A DNA stretch of 63,449 nt, counting the filler, from Collodictyon triciliatum (Eukaryota): the NCBI GenBank assembly GCA_043381765.1. It is 16 parts of 16 records of this genome, joined end to end, with 100 filler letters (N's around TTAATTAATTAA, not from the genome) between each part and the next. Parts side by side here need not be neighbours in the genome. Positions count along the whole stretch, not along the records: positions 48,002 to 52,256 come from JBHJMP010006317.1; 15 more parts are not named here. The stretch is one strand, 5' to 3'. Both the position numbers and the translations under genes were made by a program. How positions within the stretch are numbered: the first letter of the stretch is position 1; each line of letters begins with the position of its first letter. The notes below the pieces were generated by a model. The model searched no databases. It saw nothing but the letters and a program-made list of their open reading frames with translations, and was not told the origin of the DNA. Shown in pieces: positions 48,916-50,900 of this stretch.

Positions 48916-50900
48916 ATGAAGAAAAGAAAACATCTTGAGTCTGAGAATATAAATTCTGTAAAACCACATTGTCAAAATGTGAAAAACATCTCTAAAGTCG
49001 ATTGTAAAGAATGCGGATGATTATTGCAAAATCAATGATACGGTTTTATTGTGTCATAATTTGGTTACCAACACTTATCTGTTTGCAAAATGTTACATAT
49101 TGAAATCACAAGTCCCAACAATCGATGAAAAGTTTTTTTCGTACGCTCTAAAGACAGTCGGAATCGTTTCACAAGATAGACCCGCAAGATTAAAAAAAAA
49201 AAAAAAACCAGATATGAGAGACGACATGATGACTTTTTATCTATGATTTTCGATTCCTTTTGTCCCGATAAGAACGCTTTCCGTTGGTTAGGCTTTCTCA
49301 TGCATTATCGTACTTGGCGAAGCAAATGTTAACAGTTTATCATAATAACACTAAGGAGCATTTTGTTAAGAGGTTATTGCGCTTTATAAACCAAACAGTT
49401 CCTAAATATGAGAATATTACGGAAGCTATTAAAAAAGACAGAGTTACGAAAGTTAAAAAAGTCATCTTCAAGAAATTCGAAATACTGGAACAATGTAAAG
49501 GATGGGCTATAACGCATTTGCATCATATCATTCCCAGCGATATTGTAAAAGCTATCAAATATGACGTCAAAGTCAATCCAAATAAGTACAATACCATGTC
49601 TGATTTACATGAATCGCATTTTTGGGGCGTTGGAGCCAAACTGTTTTAACCAATCTCTATAAGAACTGCCAATATACCATGTCATATTACTCTAGGTACG
49701 GCATGTTTGATAGATCTATTAGTATTATCTCAAAAAACATTATTACTGAAGAATATATCAGGACGCAACGAGACCCTATGGGATAATTTCTTTGAAATGA
49801 AGAAGACGGTCTTTCCTCAAAAACACTACAATTTTAAATACATGACACAAACATACGGCTTGGCGGTGTTATTATTGTTTGAAAAGAAAGGTGTTTCAAA
49901 TTCAAAATCTAATATAATCAAATATAATCAAAGACCCCGAGATTATGTTTATATTGATGAACTTTCTGAAGTGCAGTTATCTTTATTAGCGACAAAAAAA
50001 TAATTGGAGTGGACGCAGGCAAGTTTAATATGATTTACATTGTGGATGAGGCAGGTAAGAAATTACTTTATACGGCACACCTAAGAAGACATGATAGTAA
50101 ATCTCTTTAAAATCACAAAATACTCTTGTGCACGAGAAAAAAAAAGTACAATGCTTCAGGGATATGCATGGCAGCAGATTTACAAAGTGATGTTTCTTTT
50201 GGTTCATTACTTTTGAAGAGAATCGGCAGTTTGAGACATTAAGAGTATCTTTAATCGATTTAGAGACAGAACTGATTAAACATAATTCATGCATCGTCGA
50301 TTACGAAAAATTTCAAAATATGTATCTATGAAATCAAGATACCAGATAGAATTATTCAGATTTTATGTATAAGTGACTTTTGGAAAGATGAGATGGAGAT
50401 AGTATGTTAATACAAAAATGAGTGAACAATTGTTTATGGACCGAATCGAAAAGACATTTGGCAAGGATGTTATACTGGCGTGTGGAGAGGCATAACCTCG
50501 CTACACTTTGAATCGAATAAAGGAAAAAAAATACTGGCGTGTGGAGACTGGAGCAGATTATGTCAGATGAAACTTTTTATGCCAACAATCGGAAGAGGAT
50601 TACGAAAAATACTATCCAAACCTTTTGAAGCAGTTAGTGTAAATGAATTTAAAACCTCCAAGATGTGCTGTAACTGCGAAAAGGAACTGTAATATGTGAC
50701 ATTGAAAGAAAATTCAAAAAAAGGGTGTGTAGATGTCTCATATGTAAAGAATGGAATTGGTCAGAAAGCAAACAAAGTGTATCCTTGACAAGGGACTTTG
50801 TCAGCGCTAATAAAATACTCAAGAAAGTTCTTTCCATTCTTCAAAATATGCAACATGCACCTTCCTCTAAAAAAAAGAAGTTGTTGGGTCTTTCCAGACA
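48916..50900 (+). pseudogene. Fanzor (eukaryotic TnpB-like RNA-guided endonuclease, probably Fanzor1), disrupted by frameshifts and stops
   Basis: Collinear motifs across frames: VKTSLKSI, LSYLAKQMLTVYHNN...HF, YDVKVNP, QPISIRTANIPCHIT, RuvC-I IIGVDAG (D at 50012), KMRWR.YVNTK, ILACGDWS, MPTIGRGLRKIL, RuvC-II VNEFKTSKMCCNC (E at 50645), CLIC and RuvC-III TRDFVSA (D at 50794). Confidence 0.92.
50472..50547 (+). mobile_element. 42-bp retroposed insertion with a perfect 17-bp TSD inside the Fanzor ORF
   Basis: ATACTGGCGTGTGGAGA at 50472-50488 and 50531-50547 flanks GGCATAACCTCGCTACACTTTGAATCGAATAAAGGAAAAAAA. Removing the insert and one repeat restores DVILACGDWS. Confidence 0.92.

Follow-up and report, generated by a model that had tools for sequence, protein, structure and literature searches.

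Positions 48916–50915 of the DNA analysed here, a 63,449-base stretch from the Collodictyon triciliatum assembly GCA_043381765.1 (the window), hold the remains of a gene for Fanzor1, an RNA-guided nuclease carried by transposons. The evidence makes it very probable that this stretch is a single decayed and non-functional Fanzor1 gene copy that belongs to a repeat with multiple variants and lies in nuclear DNA beside RPC1, the gene for the largest subunit of RNA polymerase III. The window is a concatenation of separate contigs. A linker with stops in all six frames (N44-TTAATTAATTAA-N44) recurs at intervals of about 4,360 bases, and the pieces that it joins are ordered by falling size from 4,266 to 4,253 bases, followed by a 1012-base piece. 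Adjacency across linkers is artificial, and findings that span two pieces are therefore suspect. The real neighbourhood of the relic is the 4,255-base piece at 48002–52256 only, and genes on the other pieces are uninformative about it.

We queried a word-index search with a 244-residue fragment of the relic (49272–50003, with X at the TAA stop). One protein was found among 2410 candidates, P0002, with an E value of 2e-63. This intact metagenomic protein of 648 residues is the closest intact relative of the relic and serves as the reference for residue numbering. Compared with the window by tblastn, P0002 matched in five collinear pieces that fall in three frames (48916–50913; summed E 6e-138). 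The same stretch was matched by 150 of 151 family proteins, and none of them matched elsewhere in the window (tblastn, E ≤ 1e-3). In a frameshift-aware dynamic-programming alignment to P0002, 378 of 639 aligned codons were identical (59%), and the relic carried ten frameshifts, seven in-frame stops (six TAA and one TAG) and one 19-codon insertion; the last frameshift, at 50859, is uncertain because it falls in the poorly conserved tail. An earlier sequence-only reading of this DNA had pieced open reading frame (ORF) fragments and uncalled segments together into one near full-length, inactive protein. Both parts of that proposal are borne out, the first by an alignment that runs over residues 1–642 of the 648 and the second by the lesions. 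Judged by its sequence, the copy does nothing now, and RNA-guided cleavage is excluded for it by the broken frame.

In two freshwater metagenome runs, X3 (record 18) and X4 (record 28), each from a different study, contigs reproduced 49574–49747 with 0–1 differences and no gaps, a segment that covers the lesions at 49591, 49635 and 49647. Because two runs reproduce them, we take these lesions to be real and not assembly errors, with the caveat that one of the two runs could be the assembly's own source.

The codons for the three RuvC acidic residues are present at 50012, 50645 and 50794, where the sequence-only reading had placed them, and read gac, gaa and gac. Five residues, D364 and P365 (of the DPG motif), G521, E555 and S559, were invariant in all 65 of 65 family members, and R603 and D604 were conserved in at least 90%. 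The relic keeps six of seven invariant and 16 of 23 near-invariant family residues; the near-invariant ones lost are E236, D260, D313, E391, R487, N606 and N610. Its RuvC-I motif reads DAG, with the family-invariant P365 changed to Ala, which is decay in this copy and not a trait of the family. In RuvC-III the relic has V and K where P0002 has N606 and N610, both conserved in at least 90% of the family.

Bao and Jurka (2013; PMC3627910) gave the defining Fanzor motif, in the part of their paper used here, as D-X(125,275)-[TS][TS]-X-X-C4-X(5,50)-RD. P0002 contains it (D364 ... T558 S559 K L C562..C565 ... C587..C590 ... R603 D604), and all of its elements survive in the relic, distributed over three different frames. 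A DPG in RuvC-I is described as near-exclusive to Fanzors (PMC10711439, in part), and the RuvC-II glutamate of Fanzors is described as relocated to a place just before the zinc finger, its canonical site being taken by an inert residue (parts of PMC10711439 and PMC10530073). In the family the relocated glutamate is E555, six residues before C562, and G521 of the GDWS motif occupies the canonical strand. Both are kept in the relic, where six residues likewise separate the glutamate at 50645 from the first cysteine of the zinc finger.

To place the family, we compared P0002, and a profile of 65 full-length Fanzor1-family members (A1), with protein chains of known structure. P0002 matched GtFz1 of Guillardia theta (2.1e-28), PpFz1 of Parasitella parasitica (2.7e-24) and SpuFz1 of Spizellomyces punctatus (3.7e-23), and no other sequence in the PDB below E 0.3. 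The profile matched SpuFz1 at 2.5e-109 (profile positions 10–601, over nearly the full length of SpuFz1), PpFz1 at 8.6e-108 and GtFz1 at 4.1e-83. It reached ISDra2 TnpB at E 0.16, in the zinc-ribbon region only, and no Fanzor2 chain at E ≤ 1. The Fanzor1 fold (WED, enlarged REC, RuvC and zinc-finger/NUC) was assessed on P0002, the nearest intact sequence, in place of the broken copy. Its AlphaFold2 model (predicted local distance difference test, pLDDT, 87.7; predicted template-modelling score, pTM, 0.86) superposed on SpuFz1 with template-modelling (TM) scores of 0.75–0.81, on PpFz1 with 0.70–0.72 and on GtFz1 with 0.61, and the top seven Foldseek matches were all Fanzor1 structures (query-normalised TM 0.61–0.77). 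Against the mimivirus Fanzor2, ApmFz2, the scores were 0.20/0.26, and against TnpB 0.19/0.31. Membership of Fanzor2 is thus indicated by neither sequence nor fold, and the likeness to IS200/IS605 TnpB is confined to the zinc ribbon.

The Fanzor1 assignment is sound, because homology, fold and the published defining features are all found in the family. The sequence-only reading had reached it from a long N terminus and the GDWS motif, and had staked it on similarity to the RuvC domains of TnpB or Fanzor. P0002, the A1 profile and the fold of P0002 all support it, and the relic's own 244-residue fragment, with X at the stop, reaches GtFz1 at E 7.2e-5. The same reading went too far in speaking of an uncharacterised Fanzor family: an exhaustive HMMER search of a public protein library returned 3147 cluster representatives with E values up to 1e-3, of which 537 reached 1e-30 or below, and PF26935 (DUF8286, Pfam 38.1) is the label of P0002 and its relatives in the source database and the ESM Atlas. 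Family members have about 580–710 residues. Pfam Cas12f1-like_TNB was found in 44 of 65 of them and OrfB_IS605 in one of 65; P0002 itself matched nothing at E ≤ 0.1 in a Pfam copy that apparently came without the PF26935 model.

Two sequencing runs, X1 and X2, tentatively labelled as RNA, have contigs that lie on the 4.15-kb stretch at at least 85% identity, and they come from the same organism as the relic or a very close one. There were 527 such contigs in X1 and 530 in X2, with up to 20 different contigs per position. Nearly all lay between 48102 and about 50900, and the RPC1 side had one spliced contig per run. By identity, 96 of the X1 contigs were at 99% or above, 105 at 95–99%, 179 at 90–95% and 147 below 90%. 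Most other variants have one base fewer at 48982 (54.6 of 68.7 in X1; shares are of the summed contig depth at the given place) and CA added after 49242 (132.7 of 167.1), and other variants have G in place of T at the 49269 stop (211.2 of 211.2). They further differ from the relic by indels at 49591, 49593 and 49624 and by a G added after 50314. Several of the relic's lesions are private, missing from most other variants, and the relic is one old member of a many-variant repeat. Copies that are free of several of these lesions occur in X1 and X2, with no whole intact copy among them; intact copies in the host, a possibility raised by the sequence-only reading, are plausible. In both X1 and X2, a single contig lacks 99 nt (a multiple of three, with GT..AG ends) at 49888–49988, in the variable linker before RuvC-I; this may be a deletion variant among the copies or a spliced transcript of the family.

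The 19-codon insertion of the P0002 alignment is a 42-nt retroposon tail flanked by a perfect 17-nt direct repeat (50472–50488 and 50531–50547), a target-site duplication. Contigs have loose ends on both sides of this segment, where the summed depth of the stretch peaks (969 and 983); in four runs there are contigs that match the segment alone and diverge beyond it. The last 26 nt of the tail recur exactly in the leader of the relic, flanked by a 14-nt target-site duplication, and an apparent inverted copy (about 48430–48455) can also be seen there by eye. The tails belong to one very abundant A-tailed repeat (...TGAATCGAATAAAGGAAAAAAAA), and their anatomy suggests 5′-truncated retroposons, similar to long or short interspersed elements (LINE/SINE), that arose by target-primed reverse transcription.

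Next to the relic, and tail to tail with it, lie the last exons of RPC1. The exon at 51583–51720 matched human and yeast RPC1 at 2e-13; the gene also matched Pfam RNA_pol_Rpb1_5 at E 5e-4, and one spliced contig matched 50979–51217 without a mismatch. Its introns have CT..AC ends on the plus strand, that is, GT..AG on the minus strand. A spliced, intron-bearing RPC1 alongside places the relic in the nuclear DNA of an intron-bearing eukaryote. Between the end of the RPC1 transcript contig, at 50979, and the last aligned codon of the relic lie about 65 nt.

The surroundings of intact Fanzor1 genes were studied in metagenomes. A scan with a nine-sequence alignment found relatives in 411 of 581 candidate stretches, and 80 of these 411 loci were kept, at 38–47% identity. 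An intact ORF of at least 450 residues was present in 77 of the 80, with a basic N terminus such as MKKKK. Seven long loci had an ORF coverage of 0.72–0.95 and a GC content of 0.19–0.35, and viral-type genes were found in the five loci inspected for them (L002, L003, L012, L051 and L068). Genes on the long loci include a capping enzyme fused to an N7 methyltransferase, Rpb2, the small subunit of ribonucleotide reductase, Hsp70, PIF1 helicase and PARP. By this gene content the context of the relatives is giant-virus-like. The nearest Atlas clusters, which carry PF26935/DUF8286, are 92–100% Nucleocytoviricota, which we treat as a lead only; these taxa apply to relatives of the protein and say nothing of the host.

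In 40 of the 80 loci a DDE_3 transposase (with HTH_28) lies just upstream of the Fanzor gene. DNA conservation among the relatives extends 50–100 nt past the stop codon and ends sharply at ...AAAGGTGTA. Terminal inverted repeats (TIRs) of the form TACACCTTT.../...AAAGGTGTA made 49 pairs in 46 of the 80 loci, with 0–3 mismatches in 24. They bound elements of about 2.35–2.4 kb with Fanzor only, or of 3–7 kb with a transposase, and the flanks read T|TA...TA|A. These TA-flanked elements have the Tc1/mariner arrangement of PGv-1 and its kin, as set out in part of PMC3627910. The same TIR pair bounds Fanzor-only elements (L012, L021, L022, L024, L046, L049 and others) and transposase-bearing ones (L014, L017, L020 and L030). 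Three loci (L029, L058 and L061) have two right ends per left end, as nested or tandem copies would. The 5′ flank before the TA is nearly always T-rich, which may reflect a transposon-adjacent motif (TAM) or just AT-rich genomes.

The omega-RNA of such an element is expected at the gene end and the transposon right end (PMC10432273, in part). In the relatives, the last 50 nt of the gene and the right end form stems, with 29 predicted pairs, six of which show compensatory changes. R1, a covariance model of the relatives' right end, recovered L013 (7e-7) and L001, L003, L004 and L005 (0.004–0.011). When the 48002–52256 piece was compared with the 80 loci by blastn, only the coding core at 50542–50775 aligned (66–78%), and the leader and the 3′ end remained unaligned.

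In a FastTree phylogeny with a midpoint root, the relic and P0002 form a pair with a support of 100. The pair falls within a ten-row clade (support 82) that includes six viral-context loci, and this clade lies inside an 87-row clade (support 96) that holds all 54 loci used. The relic subclade is at most 46% identical to its next relatives. An insert of about 33 residues after RuvC-I, modelled with low confidence, is common to P0002 and the relic only and is absent in eight other relatives. Since the relatives occur in TIR-bounded elements on giant-virus-like contigs, the host family probably shares its origin with viral elements. A common origin with virus-borne elements is likely on these sequences, with transfer in either direction.

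Several results weigh against this account of the relic and its family. No whole second host copy was found in X1 or X2, where the variants are short contigs (about 230–420 nt), and summed contig depth is not copy number. The inner nodes that link the pair to the viral-context loci are weak (25, 82 and 66), and none of the 36 pattern matches that P0002 gave in viral_contigs was a relative. The TIR motif of the relatives is missing at the relic, its one match, at chance level, being at 27057 on another contig; the best inverted match between the left and right of the piece scored 24, against a shuffle mean of 21.8 and a maximum of 34. R1 found nothing at the relic, its best matches in the window lying elsewhere (E 0.16 and 0.61), and because R1 was built from a sister subclade, divergence could also explain the miss. 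The 3′ region of the relic (50790–50985) folded no better than shuffles (z = −0.42). Given the R1 miss and this z-score, 'Fanzor plus omega-RNA' is, for the relic's family, an inference.

Other explanations of the stretch fit these data less well. The relic could have been left by an integrated giant-virus genome, as an endogenous viral element and not as part of a cellular transposon family. All relatives with a readable context sit on dense, low-GC contigs with giant-virus-type genes, the Atlas clusters point the same way, the relic and P0002 nest among viral-context loci, and a larger viral island could lie to the left of so short a piece. However, no other viral gene lies on the 4.25-kb piece, its neighbour is the spliced host RPC1, and the many diverged variants in the runs fit a dispersed repeat better than a single integration. 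We consider such an origin improbable.

An intact gene, in which the breaks would be assembly errors, short introns, programmed frameshifts or the product of an alternative code that reads TAA and TAG as Gln, is very improbable. P0002 does have Gln at three of the seven stops (TAA 49269, TAA 49647 and TAG 50400), A runs are close to some frameshifts, and eukaryotic Fanzor genes often have introns, according to part of PMC10530073. Yet ten shifts of 1–2 nt without extra DNA cannot be introns, and reading the stops as Gln leaves all frameshifts unrepaired. Other contigs of the assembly have ORFs of 1070–1438 codons that the standard code leaves uninterrupted, and the lesions at 49591, 49635 and 49647 recur exactly in two runs of different studies. 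The insertion carries a target-site duplication, and seven conserved residues and the invariant Pro are altered as well. We rejected the intact gene on the ten shifts, the independent reads and the long standard-code ORFs. That AT-rich junk resembles nuclease motifs by chance has practically no probability: Pfam alone would allow it, with one weak match to Cas12f1-like_TNB (E 0.032) on one of the raw relic fragments, but the collinear, full-length alignment to P0002 and the family-wide matches to this stretch alone reject it.

The nearest known systems are SpuFz1 (PDB 8GKH and 9CEU–9CEZ), PpFz1 (9CF0) and GtFz1 (9CER), with which the family shares full-length homology through the A1 profile and, for P0002, the fold. 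SpuFz1 has the catalytic layout of the relic's family, D of DPG, relocated E and D of RD, and its catalytic residues are given as D383, E541 and D606 in the part of Saito et al. (2023; PMC10432273) consulted. Identity in the structural alignment is about 19–20%, the relic's subclade differs from these structures by the insert after RuvC-I, and the window copy is dead. The PGv-1-type Fanzor1 elements that Bao and Jurka describe from giant viruses, housed in Tc1/mariner transposons (PMC3627910, in part), resemble the elements of the relic's relatives, which are TA-flanked, have TIRs of about 24–30 nt, carry a mariner-like DDE_3 transposase or Fanzor alone and lie on giant-virus-like contigs; this likeness is one of arrangement and motif. 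By contrast, the window copy has no detectable transposase, TIR or TA duplication and lies in cellular DNA, in a multi-variant repeat.

ISDra2 TnpB (PDB 8H1J and 8EXA), of the prokaryotic ancestor type, has the RuvC and zinc-ribbon core in common with the family. TnpB takes its guide RNA from the gene's 3′ terminus together with the right end of the transposon. Unlike the relic's family, TnpB has a canonical RuvC-II Glu, usually D-hydrophobic-G and about 400 residues; the ISDra2 fold is distant from the P0002 model, and no IS200/605 TnpA was found at the relic. The Fanzor2 of Acanthamoeba polyphaga mimivirus (PDB 9B0L) is likewise a virus-borne TnpB descendant of eukaryotes with a relocated glutamate (PMC10530073, in part), but lacks the long REC-type N-terminal half of the relic's family. 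Fanzors are reported as multi-copy in protist genomes, with up to 122 copies, in part of the same source.

From the family, the solved SpuFz1 structure and the Fanzor papers, an intact copy would be expected to encode a protein of about 640 residues that binds an omega-RNA, whose template would span the gene's 3′ terminus and the transposon's right end. Part of PMC10432273 places the guide RNA there. By analogy, the omega-RNA would guide the cutting of matching double-stranded DNA next to a TAM, with a RuvC catalytic triad made up of one D each from DPG and RD and of the E relocated to just before the zinc finger. The basic N terminus MKKRK is probably for nuclear import.

The relic is an ordinary remnant of a known kind, damaged throughout. 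Published work already covers Fanzor1, its links to mariner-type elements and giant viruses, its multi-copy state in protists and its decayed copies. By itself it matters little, as dead Fanzor1 copies are expected wherever the family was active. It is of modest use as a flag for a genome that holds many Fanzor1 variants of one subclade, a possible source of natural intact nucleases. Of similar use are the relatives, which show clearly how Fanzor1 lies in TA-flanked mariner-type elements of giant-virus-like genomes, with sharply defined ends and a covarying 3′ RNA; this bears on how these nucleases move between viruses and hosts. Tentatively, and with more doubt than confidence, we suggest that the host, a freshwater eukaryote, carries a recently amplified and possibly still transcribed Fanzor1 subclade, marked by the insert of about 33 residues, that has been exchanged with giant viruses on Tc1/mariner-type elements and still includes intact, active nucleases. 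If so, the relic would be the visible tip of a live virus–host transposon system.

Table 1. Features of the relic, its contig and the window joints (window coordinates).
Feature	Position	Strand	Details and basis
Linkers	4267-4366, 8648-8747, ... 62077-62176		
Contig start	48002..48101		After linker; (TTTCTC)n microsatellite; left limit of usable context; linker map, repeat families D3 and D4
5′ leader	48102..48915	+	Same repeated unit as gene; no ORF, no transposase trace; left end of element not reached; X1 and X2 contigs
Segment missing from other repeat copies	48331..48539		About 209 nt; joints 48330->48540 and similar in X1 and X2
Retroposon tail, 26 nt	48368-48393		Flanked by 14-nt direct repeat GTTGCAAAATTCTT; families D11 and D19
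Fanzor1 pseudogene	48916..50915	+	P0002 residues 1-642 of 648; tblastn and frameshift-aware alignment
Frameshifts	48983, 49242, 49591, 49635, 49994, 50209, 50313, 50483, 50725, 50859	+	Alignment to P0002
In-frame stops	TAA 49269, 49647, 50108, 50370, 50690, 50868; TAG 50400	+	Alignment to P0002
RuvC-I motif GVDAG	50006..50020	+	Catalytic Asp codon gac at 50012 kept
Retroposon-tail insertion in gene	50472..50547		42-nt tail 50489-50530, A-run end; families D11 and D13
GDWS motif	50543..50554	+	Canonical RuvC-II position; invariant Gly (G521) where Glu expected
Alternative RuvC-II Glu motif NEFKTSKMCCNC	50642-50677	+	Glu codon gaa at 50645
Alternative RuvC-II Glu and zinc finger	50642..50745	+	Both CxxC pairs, through CLIC; split by stop 50690 and frameshift 50725
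Second CxxC	50734-50745	+	
RuvC-III motif TRDFVSANKIL	50788..50820	+	Asp codon gac at 50794 kept
Approximate right edge of element	50916..51020		Repeat contigs thin out; no TIR or omega-RNA-like structure recognisable
RPC1, last exons	50979..52256	-	Tail to tail with relic; translation, spliced contigs
RPC1 introns	51218-51351, 51415-51580, 51720-51895, 51969-52068	-	100-176 nt; spliced joints in X1 and X2

The edges of the element are less distinct than the gene. Three DDE_3 transposases of relatives, compared with the window by tblastn, gave a best E of 1.2, elsewhere in the window, and the window showed no DDE_3, TIR or TA duplication by which the relic could be assigned to Tc1/mariner (IS630-like) elements. 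The remark in the sequence-only reading that no transposase is visible nearby agrees with this, but it holds only for the 4.25-kb contig, whose left end cuts the element. Because only 914 nt of that contig precede the gene, the element's left end may be missing.

The other pieces of the window hold further features. A scan of the whole window with Rfam at gathering thresholds gave no matches. Long unbroken ORFs are found at 5358–8570 (−), 4437–5357 (−) and 26422–30463 (+), with 1070, 306 and 826 aa and neighbours of 183–215 aa; the long ORFs matched no Pfam family at E ≤ 1e-3, and several of them are charged and coiled-coil-like. NHL repeats lie at 56713–57759, ankyrin repeats at 54586–55080 and a Ras fragment at 14310–14699. 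On the piece at 1–4266 (−), a 1422-aa open frame that runs off the contig encodes nine WD40 repeats and, after them, 25 cysteine repeats of the Ephrin_rec_like (GCC2/GCC3) type, an unusual fusion.

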